36,916 nucleotides of DNA. Origin: a virus (Duplodnaviria > Heunggongvirae > Uroviricota > Caudoviricetes). The DNA lies in the IMG/VR virus record IMGVR_UViG_2534681999_000017. One strand, 5' to 3'. Shown here one piece after another: positions 1 to 36,916 of the stretch. A model generated the notes under the pieces. That model was given only the letters and a program-made list of their open reading frames with translations, had not been told where the DNA came from and did no database searches. The translations under genes and the position numbers were made by a program. Position 1 is the stretch's first letter; each line of letters begins with the position of its first letter.

Positions 1-1932
1 AAGCGGAGGTAATACACCGTAAGAGCTGGAAAAACCGTGCAGAAGTGGAACTGGCCACACTAACGTGGGTGGACTGGTATAACAATCGACGATTGCTGGG
101 AAGGCTGGGCCATACTCCTCCGGCAGAAGCAGAAAAAGCTTATTATGCTTCCATCGGAAACGATGATCTGGCAGCCTGAGTTCACAGATAAAACACTCTC
201 CAGGAAACCCGGGGCGGTTCAGCAGATTATTCCCTGCATCCCCTGTCAGGGTGACACCCTGCGGCAGAGAGGAAACCGGCCAGTAAAGCCCCATGACATA
301 CTGGTTTGCCACCAGGTCGCCAGGTACTTTAAAACGACAACTGATTAAACCACCATTTTTCAGCAGTTCAGCACCAGTACCGGCATCATGATCCAGATAC
401 CAGGATGATTTACCTGTTTCCTTGGTCAGTTTCATTGCCTTACCACCTGTGCCTCCTGCATCACTGATAATTTCAGCTTTACCGCCAGCCGGCTCCCAGC
501 CCTGGGCTTTCAGATTTCCTTCTGACTCACTGACACGATAAGACAGCAGTGTTGTGGTTACTGCTTCAGTTTCTGAAGGTGACGGCACTGGTGCTTCAGT
601 TTCAGAAGATGGAACATCGGCTTTTACTGTGGTTCGCCCCGCATGAGTCAGAACTGCCGTGGCCAGACGGTCGGAAATAATCCCACGACGTGCCCATGAA
701 CTGAAATGGCTGGCCCGGTCCGCAGATGTCCAGGTGGCGGCACTGTTACGCCACGTTGAGCCGTAATAACCAATGGATTCAATATCCGGGTCTTCTGCCG
801 GATTGTTGGTGGGTACATTCGCGTCATTTTCATCTGTCATTAATGGAACGAAATGAATGTTTTTATCTGTTTTGTTTTTGTAGCCGCCATAGATTGCCTG
901 GTATGCCGGTTCATTTTTCTGTTTCCAGAAATACGTGGTATCGCCACAAATCCACGGAACGCCAGCAGCACTGCCACCGGTACACTGTTCCGCCTGTTCA
1001 GCCAGGTCTGCGCGGAATTTTTCCACCATCGCCAGAAACAGCGCGGAATGCTCCGTCGGCTTCGCATCAATATCAAACTCGCCCTGCATCCACACCACAG
1101 CAAGCAGGCGGTTTTTCGGGTTCTTCGCCAGTGCCGCTTTTGTCCGGCTGATTAAGTCCTTATACAGCGGCTTATCCACACCCCAGCGGGCTGAGTCCTC
1201 TGAAGCACCCGTGCTGTCACTGTACGTGCCGTCAGCACCCGCCGTGAATGCAGAACCACCACGGCAGCAGGGAACCAGCAGAATCCCCGCATCTGCCGGA
1301 ATAAACGGCAGCAGTTTTTTGGCAATGTGAAGCCCCTGACCCACGGTGCCATATTGCCCTTTAGCCACATCCGCTTTCGGGTGATTTTTTCCACTCATAT
1401 CCTGCACATCATGCAGACAGTGGTCGGCCAGAATGATGTCGTTATACTGACAGGCTTTACCTCCCGGCGTGACTGTACTGCGACGGGCTAACTGCATAAT
1501 ACGCGGTTCGGGGCGGTCATATGTCTCCGGCAGTGGCAGACCTTCACCGTAAGCCATACCGTTTGACTGACCAGCAAGAACCACCACGTAATACCAGGAA
1601 GGGGAGCTGGAAGCAGTTTCATTTCCTGACGGACGGGTATGTGTTTCAGCATTATCCCAGTCTGACGGTTCAGCAGTACCGGCAACATCAGCACTTAACG
1701 GAATGACCGCACCAATACCCGCTCCGGTAATTTCCACACTCGGATCACCGGATACTGGCCTTACCCACAGGCAATCCCGTGTATTAAAACTGATGAGACA
1801 GTCAGCAAATGTCATTCCTCCTTTTGTTTCGGCCGGAGGAAAGGGAGCCTCAAGAAATGCCGCTGTACCACCGGAAACTTTAACAGTAAAGTTTCCGGGC
1901 ATTGATGATAGTTGAACCCATTTGGACGTCAT
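1..1932 (-). CDS. nanS: NanS-type sialate O-acetylesterase (SGNH/SASA hydrolase) with N- and C-terminal extensions; 3' end unresolved, frame open to window start
   Basis: ATG at 1932 with AGGAACAGG 9 nt upstream and an in-frame stop at 1963-1965; 644 codons without a stop. Contains VVLAGQSNGMAYGEGLPLP, HDVQDM, QYGTVGQGLHIAKKLLPFIP, LVPCCRGGSAFTAG, WMQGEFD, CGDTTYFWK, SHFSSWARRGIISDRL, co-linear with E. coli NanS/YjhS as recalled. Confidence 0.8.
   Translation of the reverse strand, partial: MTSKWVQLSSMPGNFTVKVSGGTAAFLEAPFPPAETKGGMTFADCLISFNTRDCLWVRPVSGDPSVEITGAGIGAVIPLSADVAGTAEPSDWDNAETHTRPSGNETASSSPSWYYVVVLAGQSNGMAYGEGLPLPETYDRPEPRIMQLARRSTVTPGGKACQYNDIILADHCLHDVQDMSGKNHPKADVAKGQYGTVGQGLHIAKKLLPFIPADAGILLVPCCRGGSAFTAGADGTYSDSTGASEDSARWGVDKPLYKDLISRTKAALAKNPKNRLLAVVWMQGEFDIDAKPTEHSALFLAMVEKFRADLAEQAEQCTGGSAAGVPWICGDTTYFWKQKNEPAYQAIYGGYKNKTDKNIHFVPLMTDENDANVPTNNPAEDPDIESIGYYGSTWRNSAATWTSADRASHFSSWARRGIISDRLATAVLTHAGRTTVKADVPSSETEAPVPSPSETEAVTTTLLSYRVSESEGNLKAQGWEPAGGKAEIISDAGGTGGKAMKLTKETGKSSWYLDHDAGTGAELLKNGGLISCRFKVPGDLVANQYVMGLYWPVSSLPQGVTLTGDAGNNLLNRPGFPGECFICELRLPDHRFRWKHNKLFLLLPEEYGPAFPAIVDCYTSPPTLVWPVPLLHGFSSSYGVLPPL
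3..179 (+). mobile_element. IS3-family (rve/DDE integrase-core) transposase, C-terminal fragment cut by the window edge
   Basis: Frame ending at TGA 177-179 reads AEVIHRKSWKNRAEVELATLTWVDWYNNRRLLGRLGHTPPAEAEKAYYASIGNDDLAA, a typical IS3-family OrfB C-terminus (W-x-DWYNN-RR ... PP-AE-E-YY). Confidence 0.45.
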
Positions 1933-2031
1933 AATAATCAGCCTGTTCCTGAATAAACTGAATTATCATATCCACAGACCGATAAACGCCATTTTGCGTT
2001 AATTCAGTAAAGGCCCAACAAAGAGAGCGTC

Positions 2032-2592
2032 TTATTTTTCCGAAACGCTCGCAGGATAATAACGATAAAGGGTTGAAAGGCCGATATCAAAAATAAGTGC
2101 CACCTGTCTTCGACTGACACCCCCGGCCAGTAAACGCCCGACCTGCTCGTATTGTTCCTGCGTGAGACGACGGGGTCTGCCGCCGGTTCGTCCCCTTTCA
2201 CGGGCAGCTGCAAGACCAGCCCGTGTCCGTTCGACAATTAATTCACGCTCCATTTCTGCCAGCGCACCCATTATGTGAAAAAAGAAGCGCCCCATGGGGG
2301 TTGACGTATCAATGTTGTCAGTAAGACTACGAAAATTTATCCCCTGTTGCTGTAATTCATCTGTCAGCGCAACAAGGTGGCGCATACTGCGCCCCAGCCT
2401 GTCCAGTTTCCAGACCATCAGTGTGTCACCGGGTTTTAGTTTCTTCAGTGCCCGCTTCAGTCCCGGCCGCTGTGTCGTTTTACCACTCATTTTATCTTCA
2501 AAAATCTGCTCACATCCTGCACATTCCAGCGCATTTCTTTGTAAACCTGTGTTCTGGTCATTTGTTGATACGCGTATATAGCCAATCAGCAT
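2032..2592 (-). CDS. gin: Serine DNA invertase, Gin/Pin/Cin/Hin family
   Basis: 186 aa, MLIGYIRVSTNDQNTGLQRNALECAGCEQIFEDK...VWKLDRLGRSM...GINFRSLTDNIDTSTPMGRFFFHIMGALAEMERELIVERT; near-identical motif order to Mu Gin and e14 Pin. Confidence 0.93.
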   Translation of the reverse strand: MLIGYIRVSTNDQNTGLQRNALECAGCEQIFEDKMSGKTTQRPGLKRALKKLKPGDTLMVWKLDRLGRSMRHLVALTDELQQQGINFRSLTDNIDTSTPMGRFFFHIMGALAEMERELIVERTRAGLAAARERGRTGGRPRRLTQEQYEQVGRLLAGGVSRRQVALIFDIGLSTLYRYYPASVSEK

Positions 2593-2647
2593 GTATTTAC
2601 CTTCCTTAAAAAGAGGTGGAAAGGCCTTTTAAAGCAGATATACGGCA

Positions 2648-2673
2648 TCCCTGAAACCTTCGGTTTACGGGAT
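2648..2673. other. gix-like crossover site A (gin-proximal), 26 bp imperfect dyad
   Basis: TCCCTGAAACCT TC GGTTTACGGGAT; the inner half (TCCCGTAAACC on the other strand) is shared with site B and matches the Hin/Gin half-site pattern ending AAACC. Confidence 0.6.
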
Positions 2674-2815
2674 ACTGTAAACAGGGCCGCGAATGCCCTG
2701 CCATCGAACGGAGCGGCTGTTGCAGCGAATAAACTCGCCACTCCAAGAAATATTAATGGTGTCCCATTTGACGGAACGCAGGATATAAATATTACATCGG
2801 GGATGACGCAGTCTG
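2663..2815. repeat. Inverted repeat arm 1 of the invertible segment (about 150 bp), encoding the conserved start of the alternative fibre tip
   Basis: High identity to the reverse complement of 3886-4034, for example CTCGCCACTCCAAGAAATATTAATGGTGTCCCATTTGACGGAACGC versus CTCGCCACCCCAAGAAATATTAATGGTGTTCCTTTTGACGGAACGC. Confidence 0.8.
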
Positions 2816-3018
2816 TGGCTGACTCACGTTATGTTCAAAGCATTCGAAGAGGTTCAAGGTCAACGATTGGAATGCAATATAATATTTTTGAGGTTCCTGA
2901 CGGATGCGTACTTACAGGGCTTGATGTCGCTGGTGATGGTAATGCAACGGTAACCGCATATTATCGACCTGTTCAGTTTCTGATAGATGGTTCGTGGAAA
3001 ACAGCTTCCAGCGCATAA
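2674..3018 (+). CDS. Alternative tail-fibre C-terminal tip (Sv'-like exon), no start of its own, silent in this orientation
   Basis: In-frame reading from site A gives ...GLRDTVNRAANALPSNGAAVAANKLATPRNINGVPFDGTQDINITSGMTQSVADSRYVQ...YYRPVQFLIDGSWKTASSA, homologous to the S C-terminus (…ATPRNINGVPFDGTLDINITSGMTQS…YYRPVQIYINNAWRTVSSV). Confidence 0.7.
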   Translation, partial: TVNRAANALPSNGAAVAANKLATPRNINGVPFDGTQDINITSGMTQSVADSRYVQSIRRGSRSTIGMQYNIFEVPDGCVLTGLDVAGDGNATVTAYYRPVQFLIDGSWKTASSA

Positions 3019-3097
3019 AAGTGCAGTAGTTCAAAAAACAGATTATCTGAATAAATATATGATGATTTTGTCTTTTCAACAAAAACAAGGTGAAATA

Positions 3098-3619
3098 ATG
3101 GAGCTTATTAACGTAAAACGATATTACCCGGAACACAAACCCTATGGTGAGGATGTTCAGTATTTCCAGAGTGAGGACGGAAGGGATTTTTATGAATCTA
3201 TCCCGCTTTTCACAAAGAAATACAAACTCTGTATTTCGCCTGTAACGGGTATTATCTGCTCTGTTGCTGAAGATGTCTCTGCTTTATATCCGGCAGGTTT
3301 TACTGTTGTTGAAGTGGACGAACTGCCGGAAGGTGTGAATATTGACGGTAACTGGCAGTTTTCTGATGGCCTGATATCAAAGGTGACGGTAAACTGGAAG
3401 ACGGTTGCTGAAAAGCGCCGCTCATCGCTGCTCCAGGAAGCCAACGAAACTGTGGATGACTGGAAAACGGAATTAAAACTGGACATGATTAGCGATGAAA
3501 ATAAATTACAGCTGACGCGCTGGATGGCGTATATCCGACAGCTTAAAGAAATGCACTTTAATGATATTGCCAGTGAGGGGCATTACCAGGCGATTCCCTG
3601 GCCGGAAAAACCGGAATAA
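3098..3619 (+). CDS. Tail-fibre assembly chaperone (Mu U / Tfa family)
   Basis: ATG at 3098 with AAGGTGA upstream; MELINVKRYYPEHKPYGEDVQYFQSEDGRDFYES...LTRWMAYIRQLKEMHFNDIA...PWPEKPE; the ORF-track start at 2987 is an upstream over-extension. Confidence 0.8.
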   Translation: MELINVKRYYPEHKPYGEDVQYFQSEDGRDFYESIPLFTKKYKLCISPVTGIICSVAEDVSALYPAGFTVVEVDELPEGVNIDGNWQFSDGLISKVTVNWKTVAEKRRSSLLQEANETVDDWKTELKLDMISDENKLQLTRWMAYIRQLKEMHFNDIASEGHYQAIPWPEKPE

Positions 3620-3653: not shown

Positions 3654-4565
3654 TTACACTGAACTTACCGTTCTCCAGGCATTATTAATATAAATCTGAA
3701 CCGGGCGATAATAGACCCCACCGATATTGTCCGCAGACCGGGAGCCGGTTTCCTGCACGTTAATTCCGGAAAGCATACAACCGGAAGGTGCGCTGTAATT
3801 CCATGACATTTCATTGCCTCCGGGTGAATGATAGCTCTGTGCTCCAAGCTGAACATTCTGTACATACCGGCCATCTGCGGTTGACTGCGTCATTCCTGAC
3901 GTGATGTTGATATCCAGCGTTCCGTCAAAAGGAACACCATTAATATTTCTTGGGGTGGCGAGTCTGTTTGCTGCCACGGCGGTTCCACCCGATGGCAGGG
4001 CATCAGCAGCCTTATTTACCGTTTCCCGTAAACCAACGTTATCGATAAAAGCGCCTTTATCCGGAATGTCTGCGCCGTTCTGCTCCCTGCGCAGGTAACG
4101 GTTATCACCTTCGCTTTTGCTGTAAACATCCAGATTATTACGGGCGGTTCCCGCATTCTCCAGGTCGGCAAGGTTCTGATCCTTCGCCAGAGCATTAACG
4201 TCACCGGGACCAAGACTGTTTTTTGTGGCAAGCGCCCCAAGACCAAGATAACCACGGGCAAGACGCTGGGCTTCCGCACCGGCATCAGCAATTTCTTTCA
4301 GGTTGTTTTTCCGGGAAAAGGCATTCGCAGCGATAATGGCTTTAATGGACAGCGTAAGCTGGTTTAACTGCGCCTTATCCGGCTGAATACTGGCTTCAGC
4401 CAGAATATTCAGCAGTTCGGCCTGGAGAATATTCAGCCAGTCCTGACCAATCCAGCTGATACCTTTTTGTCCGTCACCTTCGGTAAACCAGGTGGTGGTA
4501 TTACTCTGCGCCGGTGCCAGCGCAGGCATATTCGCCACGCCGGAATTATTATCAACATGGAACAT
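3654..4565 (-). CDS. Tail fibre protein (Mu S-like), constant part fused to the currently expressed tip
   Basis: True start MFHVDNNSGVANMPALAPAQ at 4565 (ATG overlaps the upstream stop as TAATG); C-terminus ...GVYYRPVQIYINNAWRTVSSV is a P2 H / Mu S-type fibre tip. Confidence 0.85.
   Translation of the reverse strand: MFHVDNNSGVANMPALAPAQSNTTTWFTEGDGQKGISWIGQDWLNILQAELLNILAEASIQPDKAQLNQLTLSIKAIIAANAFSRKNNLKEIADAGAEAQRLARGYLGLGALATKNSLGPGDVNALAKDQNLADLENAGTARNNLDVYSKSEGDNRYLRREQNGADIPDKGAFIDNVGLRETVNKAADALPSGGTAVAANRLATPRNINGVPFDGTLDINITSGMTQSTADGRYVQNVQLGAQSYHSPGGNEMSWNYSAPSGCMLSGINVQETGSRSADNIGGVYYRPVQIYINNAWRTVSSV
3886..4034. repeat. Inverted repeat arm 2 of the invertible segment
   Basis: Reverse complement of this stretch aligns with 2663-2815; homology starts exactly at the shared gix half-site. 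Confidence 0.8.
4023..4048. other. gix-like crossover site B, inside the S tail-fibre coding sequence
   Basis: TTCCCGTAAACC AA CGTTATCGATAA, compared with the Mu gixL sequence as recalled (TTCCTGTAAACC GA GGTTTTGGATAA); inverted relative to site A. Confidence 0.6.
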
Positions 4566-17950: not shown

Positions 17951-18126
17951 TCCGGCAGCATAGGCCGGGAATTTTCAGGGCGGGTTTTGCGGGATTTCAG
18001 GAAGTGCTTCCAGGGGAAAAATACAAAGGCGCTTCACGCAGATTTTAAAGCCCGTTAAATACAGGTTAGAAAATCACGACACGCGCCTGAAGGGGGTAAG
18101 GTAATGCATTTGCATACCTTAAACAA
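17951..18126 (-). promoter_or_regulatory. Candidate late promoter region upstream of the I-like gene
   Basis: 176 bp gap in an otherwise tightly coupled operon, at the position of Mu P_I; contains CCTTACCCCCT and a TAAAAT element on the transcribed strand. Confidence 0.4.
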
Positions 18127-31850: not shown

Positions 31851-32078
31851 TTAGCTGACTTGTTTCGCACCAACAGAACGGCATATTCCGCTGTAAACGT
31901 CTGTCGCACCTTCGCGATCAAGTCCGGCAGATATCACCATTCGTGTGCGGTCATTAAATTCAAAAAGTAAATCGCCACATTCTTTATTTTCGGCCAGTGA
32001 AATCACCTTCACGTTATCGAAATTAACCAGGTAAAAGCGTCCGTAAATATCAGGAATATAAAATACCGCCATAATCAC
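31851..32078 (-). CDS. Hypothetical small early protein (positional equivalent of Mu kil region)
   Basis: 75 aa immediately downstream of B; assignment by position only. Confidence 0.35.
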   Translation of the reverse strand: MIMAVFYIPDIYGRFYLVNFDNVKVISLAENKECGDLLFEFNDRTRMVISAGLDREGATDVYSGICRSVGAKQVS

Positions 32079-33007
32079 ACCTGTGAGAGTAATTCAGGGT
32101 TGGTATAAACCTCTTTAAAGGCCGCATTAATATGTTTTTCTGTCAGCGCCGCACCTTCACCGCTGGCGGTGAGCCACGCCTGGTTAAGCGTATGTGTCAG
32201 AACGCGTAACGCTCCCGGCTTTTCAGCGATAGCCTGCATGACGGCCAGCTCGGCCTCACCACTGATACCCCATGCCCTGGCAATGGCCAGCACATCCGCC
32301 TTTTTGGCCTTGCGAAGTTGTTTTGTACGGGCAAGACGGCTGAACAGGCGCGATAAATCATCAAAGGCGCGGCGTCCACCTTTAAACAATCCGCGCGGGT
32401 TACCAATAAGCACCATCCCGATCCCCGTGGCGTCCTGAATTGCCCGGAGTTGCTCCAGACCGTCAATACCAAGATGATCCGCCTCATCCACAATCACTAG
32501 TCCACGCGTTCCCATCAGGCGACGGCGGATGGCGCGGGATAATGCCCCTTTGTTCGCGCGGGTGTAATCAATCCCCAGCGCATCGGCCAGCTCCAGCAGA
32601 CACTCCGTGACGCTGGAGTGCGCGGGTGACAGGGTGATCATCCAGGTGTTTGGTTGCTCCTGGCAGTAATTACGGGCGGTGGCCGTTTTACCTACCCCCG
32701 GCACGCCCACAATGACGTTAATACAGCCCATCAGGCGAACCGCCTGAAACAGTGCGCGCAGCTCCTGAACTGTCTGCGTTTCCACAAACTGCGGCGGTTC
32801 CGGCAGTGCGCTTTGTTTATTCCAGTTCTCATACCAGGAACGCAGGGAAGCAGCCACAGCGGCGTTATCGCCTTTATATTTCCCCTTGCGGAAAGCCGAT
32901 AATGTGCCGTCGGAAATTCCCGCCTCTCTGGCGATGGCATACTGCGTCAGTACGCCGCCATCAATAAGTTCATCAATGGTCTTGATTACATCGTTAATAT
33001 CAGTCAT
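32075..33007 (-). CDS. B: MuB-like AAA+ target-DNA activator / transposition ATPase
   Basis: 310 aa, N-terminal HTH and Walker A VGVPGVGKT, Walker B LVIVDEADHL; directly downstream of A. Confidence 0.9.
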   Translation of the reverse strand: MTDINDVIKTIDELIDGGVLTQYAIAREAGISDGTLSAFRKGKYKGDNAAVAASLRSWYENWNKQSALPEPPQFVETQTVQELRALFQAVRLMGCINVIVGVPGVGKTATARNYCQEQPNTWMITLSPAHSSVTECLLELADALGIDYTRANKGALSRAIRRRLMGTRGLVIVDEADHLGIDGLEQLRAIQDATGIGMVLIGNPRGLFKGGRRAFDDLSRLFSRLARTKQLRKAKKADVLAIARAWGISGEAELAVMQAIAEKPGALRVLTHTLNQAWLTASGEGAALTEKHINAAFKEVYTNPELLSQV

Positions 33008-33077
33008 ATTATTAACCTCTCATTTGATACCTTGTTTAATCAAATAACCTGAGTCGCCGCTCGGGTTATTTTTTATT

Positions 33078-35168
33078 TCAGGCCAGCGGGTCATTTTCTT
33101 TTAATTTCGCTTCGAGCAACTGCAATCCCCGCTGGAAATTGCGCTCGTATTCTTCATCAGGCTCATCATCAATGGCAGGTTGCTGAACGGCCACCGTATT
33201 ACCTACCGGGCGATAGATGTTTTCCAGCCAGGGCTCCTGCGGCTTGTGCTCCAGCACGTTGACAACCTCATCCTCGGCATCACGGATTTTTTCCTCTGCG
33301 CGTTTACGCATGCCTTTAAGGCGTTGCTGCTGTTTGTAGTATTCCGCGCTAACCGGGAAGGCTTCGCGTTTATTACCGTCCCATACCGCCTCGCAAATCA
33401 CGCTGCCATCCAGGCGACGTACGGTAATTCGTTCGGCATCATGAATGTCATAGCTGATAAGCACCTTGCGGCCATGCTCATCACGCAGCTCGGGCGCGTA
33501 GTAAATATTATTCAGCCAGCGTATTTCACAGCGTCTTACAGGGCGTTCCACCATCGGCCGGAACATGTCCCGCAATTCCACATCGGACAGCCATTCAATT
33601 TCCGTGTCCTCTTCCGCCAGGCGTTTTTTTCTGAACTCCGCCGGGCTGTAATGCTTGCCGTTCGGCTTCACCGGTAATTCATCGTGCGGCCGGTTGTTGT
33701 ACCACTCAACACCATCACGAATGGCATCAATCAGTTCAGACCAGGACGGTAAATCACGCATCGCTGACTGCTGCCGGGCGTTCAGCCGTTTGCCCTGTTG
33801 CAGGGCAGTAAATGCCGAGCGTAAATCGCGGTTGGTTTTGCGTAACGTCTCGCGATCTGCACCTTTCCCGAAATAGGTGCGGTATTTACGGGCTATGCGC
33901 ATCGGTAATGTGCGGTTAAGCCGTTCGATAATGCCTCGTCCCTGCGGATTACCGGCAATCCCGGTCGGGTGATTAATCCCCAGTCGCGGCAGTATCCCCA
34001 CAACCTCCTTATCCAGGATGTCGGCGGTTTCCCCGGAGCCGTTATCCGAGTAATACAGAAACGGTTTGCCGTGATGGCGAATGCCGTGCTGTATGGCACC
34101 GGCTACGGCGAAAACATTTTCAGCCAGGTCAAGGCTCCAGCCCACCACAAAGCGCGTGCCACCGTCGATAACAAAGGTCACTTCCGGTGCAAATGGCCGA
34201 CCGTGAACCGGGTGTGCGCATTTCAGCTTCATGCCGTGACCGTCACCAATCCAGACATAATTCACCGGCATTCTGGACCAGTCGCGGCGCGTGAATCCCT
34301 CAAGCTGGCGGTATTCACTGCCGGTCACCCGGCCTTTTTGTTTCACCACTTCCGGCAGTTTCTTCATTGCGCGGCGAATGGTGTCATAAGACGGCATGAT
34401 ATCGAGCATATAAGGCTCATCAGCGTGCCGGTGCTGCCATTCAGCGACAAAATCCTCGTAAGCCTCGGTCATTGGTCGGCCGTTTGACTGGCGATACTGC
34501 GCCAGAAATTCGGGCAGCCAGTTAATATCTTCGGCTTTTATTTCCTGGCGTTTACCCGGTGCCAGTAAAAGCAGGCGTTCAGCGGCGTTCTGTGCCTTGT
34601 TAAAGGCCGCAATCCATCGCTTCAGCGTGATTTCACTCAACGCACGGCTGTTTCCCTTTTTGGCGTTCGCCGTCTCAACCATTGCCACAATGCGCTCGTC
34701 CAGCTGTGAACGTGCCAGGTTGTCAACGATAAACCGGATAGCCTTCGCGCAGCTGAAACCGGGTTGTTGCGCGACTTTCATCACTTCGCTGACGATCGCG
34801 ATTCGTGCATCAGCCACCTGGCGCTGGTTTTCAGTCAGGGCATTGAGGCGTTCGACCATCAGTTGTGGTGATCCGCGATATGCCTCCACCGCATCAACCA
34901 CGTCAGATGAGCGTCTGGCCTTTGTCACCACCGGAGCCGGTGATTCATCGGCTTTTTGCGTCATCAGTTGCAGGGCATAACGTTCACGTAATGCCTGCTG
35001 CGTCACTTCAGGTAAACAGTCGATGCTGTATTCAGTTGCTTTAGAGCCTGAGCGACGACGGGAACAACAGCTTTTCCCTTGTACGTAACGTTGTAATGCC
35101 TGGCGAATACCTTTTGTTGTAGCAGGCATTCCGGGCGCGCCAATCAGTTCTTTTGCAATGACATACAT
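33078..35168 (-). CDS. A: MuA-like DDE transposase
   Basis: 696 aa; rve-type catalytic core (…WIGDGHGMKLK…YYSDNGSG…IERLNRTLP…), downstream of ner and upstream of B. Confidence 0.92.
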   Translation of the reverse strand: MYVIAKELIGAPGMPATTKGIRQALQRYVQGKSCCSRRRSGSKATEYSIDCLPEVTQQALRERYALQLMTQKADESPAPVVTKARRSSDVVDAVEAYRGSPQLMVERLNALTENQRQVADARIAIVSEVMKVAQQPGFSCAKAIRFIVDNLARSQLDERIVAMVETANAKKGNSRALSEITLKRWIAAFNKAQNAAERLLLLAPGKRQEIKAEDINWLPEFLAQYRQSNGRPMTEAYEDFVAEWQHRHADEPYMLDIMPSYDTIRRAMKKLPEVVKQKGRVTGSEYRQLEGFTRRDWSRMPVNYVWIGDGHGMKLKCAHPVHGRPFAPEVTFVIDGGTRFVVGWSLDLAENVFAVAGAIQHGIRHHGKPFLYYSDNGSGETADILDKEVVGILPRLGINHPTGIAGNPQGRGIIERLNRTLPMRIARKYRTYFGKGADRETLRKTNRDLRSAFTALQQGKRLNARQQSAMRDLPSWSELIDAIRDGVEWYNNRPHDELPVKPNGKHYSPAEFRKKRLAEEDTEIEWLSDVELRDMFRPMVERPVRRCEIRWLNNIYYAPELRDEHGRKVLISYDIHDAERITVRRLDGSVICEAVWDGNKREAFPVSAEYYKQQQRLKGMRKRAEEKIRDAEDEVVNVLEHKPQEPWLENIYRPVGNTVAVQQPAIDDEPDEEYERNFQRGLQLLEAKLKENDPLA

Positions 35169-35169
35169 A

Positions 35170-35418
35170 TCATGACGCCTTTCTCATATAGCTCTTAACC
35201 TGGTATCTACTGGGCCAGATTTCTTCAGGCGATACCCCAAGAGCATCAGCAATTATTTGCTGATACGGTCGGCAAGGAGTACGTAATACGCTTTTCAGCG
35301 AATCCCTGCTGTAACCAGCCTTTAAAGATAAAGAGCGCAGTGATAAGCCAGCCATGTGTAAGCGCGCCTTGATGATTTCAGGCGGCCAATCGTGATCTGA
35401 AACTTCTCTTCTACTCAT
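35170..35418 (-). CDS. ner: Ner-like DNA-binding regulator (Ner/Nlp family)
   Basis: 82 aa; …IIKARLHMAGLSLRSLSLKAGYSRDSLKSVL…QQIIADALGVSPEEIWPSRYQ matches Mu Ner …IIANALETKPEVIWPSRYQ. Confidence 0.85.
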   Translation of the reverse strand: MSRREVSDHDWPPEIIKARLHMAGLSLRSLSLKAGYSRDSLKSVLRTPCRPYQQIIADALGVSPEEIWPSRYQVKSYMRKAS

Positions 35419-35608
35419 ACTTCCTCTATTCTAAAAAGTTACCCGCGCGGATATTCGTGCGGATATCTGCACGGGTAAATAATGCATCACCAAAAATACC
35501 AAATCAAGGTATTTTTGGTATTTTGGCTAATTTTTGCTTTTATCCTTATTTTTCAATTGGATAAATAGAAAGAAACCTTTCCTTAGAAAAGCACCAAGAG
35601 GTATCTTT
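35419..35608. promoter_or_regulatory. Divergent early promoter / operator region between ner and the repressor
   Basis: Perfect 11-bp palindrome CCAAAAATACC-N7-GGTATTTTTGG (35490-35518), direct repeats GCGGATAT x2 and inverted TTACCCG…CGGGTAA. Confidence 0.6.
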
Positions 35609-36139
35609 ATGTCGCAGGGAAAAGAACCTGTTATTGAACGTATTGGAATGCTTACAAAGCGCTACCCTTCAAGAAGTGCAGCTGCCAGAGCGTGGGGAAT
35701 CAATATCAACACATTAAACAGCTATTTCAAGGGAGGACAAACACAACCAGCCCCCAGAGAAAGTATCCTTATACGAATTTCTGAAAGTGAAGGAGTTAGT
35801 CTTGAGTGGCTTAAAGAGGGCAAGGGTGAATCACCAAACGATGTTGGTATTTGTGGTAATTTTGGTTGTTCTGGTGATAAGGGAGATCAACTTACACAGA
35901 TGCTTTCATTCCTTACGAAAGACGAACGAGAACAGTTAACCAATCTCCTTGCTCGCAAAGGTGTAGAGACGGTTCTGACACTGCTGGATAAAGAAAACCA
36001 GGATTTATTACAACTAGAAGGCAGGAAGCGCCTGGCTGCGTTGATGATTGTAGATATGCCAGACGATTGCGTCAGAGAGATTTTGGAAAAAACCGAGACA
36101 AGTAGGCAATCAAATCCGGTAGAATCTAAAGCGGGTTAG
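35609..36139 (+). CDS. Prophage repressor (Mu c position), HTH type
   Basis: ATG at 35609 with AAGAGG upstream (track start at 35534 is over-extended); N-terminal HTH …SAAARAWGININTLNSYFKG…; divergent from ner. Confidence 0.7.
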   Translation: MSQGKEPVIERIGMLTKRYPSRSAAARAWGININTLNSYFKGGQTQPAPRESILIRISESEGVSLEWLKEGKGESPNDVGICGNFGCSGDKGDQLTQMLSFLTKDEREQLTNLLARKGVETVLTLLDKENQDLLQLEGRKRLAALMIVDMPDDCVREILEKTETSRQSNPVESKAG

Positions 36140-36209
36140 TTTGGCGAGGCTGGCCCGTATGTTAGTTGCCATATAGATTTAATGAAGTTTTAAACGCTTT
36201 AAAAAGTTG

Positions 36210-36389
36210 AGATCGCAGTATCAAAAGTTTTGCCGATTTTAGAATAAACGATTAATTATTGCACAATCGGTATCAAATAGACTTTAAGCGCTCATCCAGA
36301 CATCACCTGTTTTATTTCAGTATCTTACAGGTGATTTCACCTCCTTTCACTAAAACCCTCGTTGGTATCAAATGATTCACCTGGTTACA
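36210..36389. mobile_element. Prophage c-side terminus with transposase-binding repeats
   Basis: Three direct copies of GTATCAAA(A/T) at 36219, 36270 and 36365; element ends …GGTTACA at 36389, which is 5'-TG on the inward-reading strand; 9-bp inverted repeat ATCACCTGT/ACAGGTGAT at 36302-36335. Confidence 0.6.
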
Positions 36390-36916
36390 CGCGCCAGGCG
36401 CACATAAAAGGGAATTCGCACAATAGCAATAGCCAGCATGGCGTTAAACAAACTCGGCCCGAGAGCGGCAGCCAGTGCCATTGTCAGTACCAACGAAGGA
36501 ATCGACAGCATAATGTCCATGATGCGCATGATGATGGCGTCTGCGCGTCCGCCAAGCACACCGGATAGACATCCGAGTAGCGAACCAATCATACCCGCAA
36601 TGGCAACCACGACTAATCCGGCGAGAATTGATTGCTGACTGCCGACCAGTACGCGGCTGAACAGATCGCGTCCCACTTCATCGGTGCCAAACCAGTGCGC
36701 CGCAGAAGGCGGCAAAAGGCGGGCGGTTAAATCAATGGCGTTGGGATCATGCGTCGCCAGCCACGGTGAAAAAATCATCATCAGTAGCATTAATACAATG
36801 ATGACTGCGCCGGTCACGGTGAGCGGACTGCCTTTCAGCATCCATACCAGTTTTGCACCGTTAAATCGCGTTTGTTTTTGTGGGCGTACGGCGGACGTTT
36901 CCTCGCTTAGCATCAT
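36377..36916 (-). pseudogene. Host DppC/OppC-family ABC transporter permease, 3'-truncated by prophage insertion
   Basis: 179 aa covering the N-terminal TM region and …RIPFYVRLAR, then VTR-stop from phage-end sequence; full-length family members are about 300 aa. Confidence 0.8.

Follow-up and report, generated by a model that had tools for sequence, protein, structure and literature searches.

Departures from the Mu rule at the ends of Sp18-type Mu-like prophages, one of which interrupts ddpC in Escherichia coli

How did a permease gene at the edge of a viral genome record come to stop inside phage DNA, and what kind of recombination placed it there? The stretch of DNA analyzed here (36,916 nucleotides, IMG/VR record IMGVR_UViG_2534681999_000017; herein referred to as the window) finishes with a reading frame that begins as a host permease and ends in phage sequence. 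The original prediction, made from the letters alone, held that a Mu-like transposable prophage sits in a DppC-family permease and has its terminus here, that the phage end lies at about 36389 with 5'-TG on the inward strand, that three direct repeats near it resemble the Mu sites L1–L3, that the C-terminal part of the permease was lost and that a 5-bp duplication of CGCGC is to be expected at the other end.

The interrupted gene is ddpC. A match to the intact copy of E. coli O157:H7 PV15-279 begins exactly at 36390 and continues at 100% identity over 527 nt, which bears out the DppC-family permease of the original prediction, and the assignment is backed by gene context, with ddpB, ddpA and ddpX lying upstream on the source contig. 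On the phage side, two independent insertions of the same phage (Stx-phage GenBank records LC727895 and LC727881), which align with the window over 1290 bp at 99.8% identity, cease to match at 36389/36390. Because the host match starts at 36390 and the phage match runs up to 36389/36390, the prophage end is placed at 36389, making the predicted position and its inward 5'-TG exact to the base. The terminus reads ...GGTTACA on the plus strand and 5'-TGTAACCAGG (5'-TGTAACC) on the inward strand, the longer inward reading from 36389 being 5'-TGTAACCAGGTGAATCATTTGATACC. The features at this junction are as follows.

36390–36916, minus strand: 5' part of ddpC, D,D-dipeptide ABC transporter permease, nt 1–527 of 897 (100% identity; Pfam OppC_N and BPD_transp_1)
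36388–36389, no strand: prophage left terminus (CA on the plus strand, 5'-TG inward) and putative cleavage point (junction identical in Sakai Sp18, LC727895 and LC727881)
36377–36916, minus strand: truncated fusion ORF of 179 aa, DdpC residues 1–176 and then V-T-R and a stop from phage DNA (translation)

The 179-aa fusion protein is annotated on six public contigs, including one of assembly GCA_015287125.1. Intact DdpC has 298 aa, the last 122 of which (41%) are split off by the prophage; the predicted truncation thus stands, after residue 176, but the C-terminal 41% now lies beyond the prophage, displaced rather than deleted. An uninterrupted ddpC sequence is present in 4272 of 5426 complete E. 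coli genomes, and the ddpC–phage junction is absent from all 5426 of those searched.

The phage itself can be identified with precision. Over its last 490 bp it matches the left end of Sp18 in O157:H7 Sakai at 100% identity; the annotation there reads "prophage Sp18, Mu-like phage" and the interrupted gene is sorM. The window also aligns colinearly with LC727895 over 95% of 24 kb. Of the 5426 complete genomes, 231 have this left end, beside many unrelated genes (including comEC, dcuC, yoaF, icmH, vasI, a glycosyltransferase gene and genes of other prophages), and the right end is likewise scattered among genomic sites, which together form the pattern of transposition rather than of site-specific integration. 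Taking this distribution with the Sp18 left-end identity and the MuA- and MuB-like genes described below, we conclude with high confidence, in agreement with the predicted Mu-like terminus, that positions 222–36389 are an Sp18-type Mu-like transposable prophage whose left (repressor-side) end is at 36389 and which entered ddpC by transposition. Prophages of the Sp18 type are already known, as are the variability of their insertion sites and six putative transposase sites: Sp18 has been described as an intact Mu-like prophage that does not circularize and is efficiently packaged (PMC2669165), and its relatives occupy sites that differ from strain to strain in O157 and other Shiga-toxin E. coli (PMC7430833, PMC10132054).

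Behind the left end, the genes follow the order repressor, ner, A, B, kil, gam, as in Mu, and those nearest to the end are listed here.

35609–36139, plus strand: gene in the repressor position, 176 aa, reading towards the end like Mu c (position; Sakai ECs_4943, "regulatory protein")
35439–35478 and 35486–35531, no strand: two palindromes between the divergent repressor and ner-like genes (inverted repeats)
35170–35418, minus strand: ner-like DNA-binding protein, 82 aa (Pfam HTH_35, E 2.5e-19)
33078–35168, minus strand: MuA-like DDE transposase, 696 aa (Pfam Mu-transpos_C, E 1.5e-17, and HTH_Tnp_Mu_1, E 1.9e-6, both above cut-off)
32075–33007, minus strand: MuB-like AAA+ transposition ATPase, 310 aa (Pfam Phage-MuB_C, E 2.5e-25; AAA_22)

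The gene in the repressor position has no Pfam match above cut-off. The transposase aligns with MuA over its full length at 22% identity (E 5e-11), and because the identity is only this high, the phage is Mu-like and not Mu in the strict sense (Muvirus). Pfam recognizes no Mu end-binding (I-beta/I-gamma) domain in it; its catalytic core resembles retroviral integrases, and a PDB sequence search with it did not reach MuA, the only matches being retroviral integrase cores. In a tblastn search, transposases closer to it than MuA came from Klebsiella phage Kp4852-3 (40% identity) and from the Pseudomonas D3112-like phages JBD93, Ab30 and HW12 (~30%). Against Mu and D108, the structural genes give weak nucleotide matches only (~71% over 830 bp). 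Both palindromes between the divergent genes are strong; one has 19-nt arms around CGCGCGGATAT and the other consists of ACCAAAAATACC/GGTATTTTTGGT. Judged by position, they are likely operators, and by analogy with Mu they may also serve as a transposition enhancer.

Sibling prophages continue through gam, mor, lysis, head, contractile-tail, invertible tail-fiber and com/mom genes. Within the window, a Gin/Hin-type serine recombinase (186 aa, 2032–2592, minus strand) adjoins oppositely oriented tail-fiber genes, an invertible host-range segment of recombinase and tail fibers already noted in Sp18 (PMC2669165). In the siblings, NCBI's PGAP annotates a "tRNA-OTHER" flanked by the head-morphogenesis and virion-morphogenesis genes (17971–18051 in record L006, 17980–18059 in L007 and 24243–24323 in L013). 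Neither tRNA genes (ARAGORN) nor Rfam families were found anywhere in the window, and a promoter and terminator scan returned counts no higher than in shuffled sequence.

If the prophage entered by transposition, the bases duplicated at its flanks should follow a rule. Mu and D3112-like phages duplicate 5 bp and B3 duplicates 6 bp (PMC8705779, PMC5977238), and a 2021 survey states that all Mu- and B3-like phages described up to then have TG–CA ends with 5- or 6-bp duplications, except for Leptospira phages with TA–TA ends (PMC8705779). We read both junctions in nine independent sibling insertions, with the following duplicated bases.

LC727895: AGAG
Sakai, sorM: TAAA
RM8385, yoaF: GGCG
90-3040, comEC: AATT
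LC727881: CATC
FRIK2455, dcuC: ATTA
RM9245, vasI/tagO: ATCA
13E0780, icmH: TGCT
89-3156, glycosyltransferase gene: GATA

The direct duplication is exactly 4 bp in all nine insertions and never 5, and GenBank records LC727895 and LC727881 themselves annotate it as 4 bp; such features were the one place in which we found a 4-bp duplication mentioned, with no discussion of it in the literature searched. The right terminus departs as well: in every Sp18-type prophage examined it is ...CGCCGCGCTATA (...GCGCTATA), that is, 3'-TA and not CA, so that the termini of these prophages are TG...TA. Right termini were located at 3919–3930 in record L003 and at ~4217–4228 in L005, and also in L006, L007, L010, L013, L015, L017 and L019. 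The Sp18-type right tip is homologous to that of Kp4852-3, which has the canonical G (TGTAGAGCGGCG...), and this homology fixes the register of the right-end alignment. A 5-bp duplication combined with a right end shorter by one base was considered and rejected: it would put A in fifth place at the right junction, but eight of the nine left junctions have another base there (T, T, C, G, T, C, C or G). Both the 4-bp length and the TA end on the right genuinely break with the Mu rule, and of the latter, too, GenBank features were the only record found. That the two mark the Sp18-type transposase as a natural Mu-family variant, with a 4-bp target stagger, 3'-TA at one end and 3'-CA at the other, is a proposition to which we assign about even chances.

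The right end of the ddpC insertion had to be approached differently. The window is identical to part of contig AAXCUR010000013.1 (GCA_015287125.1), and at its first positions and at the target site it carries the following features.

1–221, plus strand: IS629/IS1203 copy, 3' end, which breaks into the prophage ~2.9 kb before its right end (sequence match; contig end)
36390–36393, no strand: CGCG, the four duplicated target bases, second copy outside the window (nine of nine siblings; protein match)

Because the contig ends inside IS629/IS1203, the right arm (~2.9 kb) lies on another contig. We therefore modeled the right junction from sibling right ends and ddpC, separately for a 4-bp and a 5-bp duplication. 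With 4 bp, the junction is ...CGCCGCGCTATA followed directly by CGCGGGGGCAAGC and opens an in-frame fusion ORF of 137 aa, MKCKSVSKKSPRYT-RGQALVV...; with 5 bp, the frame is shifted and has no start codon. The predicted 137-aa protein exists exactly in public data, as E. coli ELW15729.1 (exact-sequence look-up), so that the junction runs ...GCTATA, CGCG, GGGGCAA in succession and ddpC nt 524–527 (CGCG) are duplicated; this ddpC right junction is known solely as protein sequence, and ELW15729.1 may derive from a sister isolate with the same insertion. A homology search for the right-junction protein gave 41 matches, all to other DdpC fragments and none with the phage-derived N-terminus, and ELW15729.1 itself proved to be a member of a larger protein cluster. 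The predicted 5-bp CGCGC duplication accordingly gives way to CGCG, both by the nine siblings and by the public junction protein.

IS629/IS1203 interrupts a cargo gene, a nanS/yjhS-like 9-O-acetyl-sialate esterase, whose truncated ORF runs on the minus strand from ~1940 down through 222, reading through the IS junction and off the window without a stop. Cargo at the right end varies among siblings: RM8385, FRIK2455 and Sakai carry mom there, 90-3040 and ~10 other genomes a DNA cytosine methyltransferase (compare 38208–38944 of record L006 with 38240–39292 of L007), and the right end common to the sibling prophages amounts to only the last ~100 bp.

The IS629/IS1203 insertion shows that this copy has begun to decay, so that it may have lost the ability to transpose. 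An alternative reading is that the end is a fossil: a defective, IS629/IS1203-interrupted and possibly rearranged copy with inactive sites, whose right end may be gone. The window does begin in an IS ~2.9 kb short of the expected right end, where the assembly breaks; against this, the IS hit a cargo gene and spared those for transposition and morphogenesis, A, B and the left end are all intact, and the exact right-junction fusion protein is public, so that the right end adjoins ddpC in at least one genome. We thus consider a fossil end unlikely.

Transposition in this family depends on transposase sites at the phage ends, and candidates are present. The motif GTATCAAAW occurs on the plus strand at 36218, 36270 and 36365, three times inside 156 bp and within 172 bp of the end, and a fourth match lies at 33022 on the minus strand, making four in the whole window against 0.42 expected. 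The putative sites, with a repeat that lies between two of them, are these.

36364–36384, minus strand: putative site L1, extent estimated, core TTTGATAC 18–25 bp from the end (motif; R1 core equidistant)
36299–36338, no strand: 12-nt inverted repeat GACATCACCTGT/ACAGGTGATTTC in the L1–L2 spacer (sequence)
36269–36289, minus strand: putative site L2, core 113–120 bp from the end (motif)
36217–36237, minus strand: putative site L3, core 165–172 bp from the end (motif)

The cores end 25, 120 and 172 bp inside the terminus, where those of Mu end at 27, 132 and 172 bp; in position and spacing the three repeats are thus what L1–L3 sites would be expected to be, as predicted. Sibling right ends (LC727895, Sakai) carry TTTGATAC cores R1, R2 and R3 at 18–25, 40–47 and 75–82 bp from the terminus; all six sites point inward (consensus TTTGATACcgA), L1 and R1 are equally far from their termini, 22 bp separate R1 from R2, and a spacer of ~87 bp precedes L2 and L3, as in Mu. 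The inverted repeat between L1 and L2 overlaps a degenerate, weak seventh site (AAGATAC, 64–70 bp from the end) and is possibly a site of DNA bending by a host protein. In the paper on phage KS10, Sp18 is likewise given six putative transposase binding sites, with its reference 18 cited for them (PMC2628397). A sensitive blastn search of the last 250 bp against phage records matched only LC727895 and LC727881, so the site cores are not conserved at the DNA level in other phage genera. Reference 18 of the KS10 paper, the source of the six Sp18 sites, is probably Morgan et al. 2002.

The repeats could instead bind the repressor, the Ner-like protein or a host factor and act in regulation or packaging, a notion that draws on the transposase having no I-beta/I-gamma domain recognizable by Pfam and on GGTAT- and A/T-rich motifs being present in the operator region too. 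We regard it as highly improbable. The TTTGATAC repeats stand at both termini, all inward, with L1 and R1 equidistant from the cut sites and R1–R2 in a 22-bp period, which is the signature of transposase sites; moreover, the operator palindromes differ in sequence (ACCAAAAATACC) and sit 860–950 bp inside the end, and in Kp4852-3 the site core has changed along with the transposase. On the motif evidence, L1–L3 and R1–R3 are therefore best read as putative transposase-binding sites.

By analogy with the chemistry of the family, we propose the following course of events. The MuA-like transposase would bind the TTTGATAC sites L1–L3 on the left and R1–R3 on the right, pair the two ends and nick them at the terminal 3'-CA (left) and 3'-TA (right). 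The nicked ends would then be joined to target-strand phosphates 4 bp apart, in a target presumably delivered by the MuB-like ATPase, and gap repair would leave CGCG on both sides of the prophage, with ddpC split after nt 527 and the 179-aa truncated product as the outcome. That the permease gene simply ends at this stop, the case that the original prediction had named against itself, or that site-specific recombination at a fixed attachment site brought the phage in, can be dismissed as next to impossible: an open frame with a stop codon is its sole point in favor, and in 4272 genomes full-length ddpC runs on past the junction, the prophage has no integrase gene at this end, and the identical phage end is found at many unrelated loci.

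Insertion by transposition into ddpC should be polar on ddpD and ddpF. The genes upstream show damage of their own: ddpA is annotated as a frameshifted pseudogene in O157 PV15-279, and ddpB of the source contig, just past the window end (8981–10004 in record L008), has one extra T (a +1 frameshift) at ~nt 469 relative to O157 PV15-279, which divides it into two ORFs. Perhaps this lineage already lacks a working ddp operon; alternatively, an assembly error may account for the extra T in ddpB.

For the host, ddpC is one more strain-specific site of a known phage type, in an operon that may already be decaying in its lineage. For annotation, the delimitation of Sp18-type prophages and their junctions should expect a 4-bp duplication and TG...TA, rather than the 5 bp and TG...CA of Mu. 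For the enzymology, a natural 4-bp stagger with mixed CA/TA termini offers a comparison for the study of target spacing and of tolerance for the terminal base in MuA-like transposases.

Among known systems, Sp18 and its relatives (Mu_JNE122137 in LC727895, Phi804-3 of FRIK804) stand nearest, sharing with the present prophage gene order, proteins, termini and the 4-bp duplication. The differences are that the ddpC site is strain-specific and occupied in none of the 5426 complete genomes searched, that the cargo near the right end is a nanS-like esterase here and ECs_4993 in Sakai, and that this copy, unlike Sp18, carries the IS629/IS1203 insertion. The D3112-like phages JBD93, Ab30 and HW12 and phage Kp4852-3 have transposases closer to this one than MuA is, and Ab30 inserts with an offset of 5 bp (PMC5977238). 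Kp4852-3 keeps the layout of the sites but around another core, TTTTGCA (left, 94–98 and 145–149; right, 20–24 and 42–46), indicating that the sites change together with the transposase; its right tip, TGTAGAGCGGCGATTTTTTT, is homologous to the Sp18-type TATAGCGCGGCGATTTTTTT, yet its ends are the canonical TG...CA and not TG...TA as here. Mu itself shares with this prophage the 5'-TG terminus of its left end (attL), three attL sites in the same orientation with L1 at the tip and L2–L3 past a spacer, the order c, ner, A, B behind the end and near-random insertion. Its left end, however, has no DNA similarity to this one, its 22-bp site consensus ends in CGAAA(A) whereas the core here is TTTGATAC, and Mu duplicates 5 bp and ends in CA on the right, where Sp18-type prophages duplicate 4 bp and end in TA.
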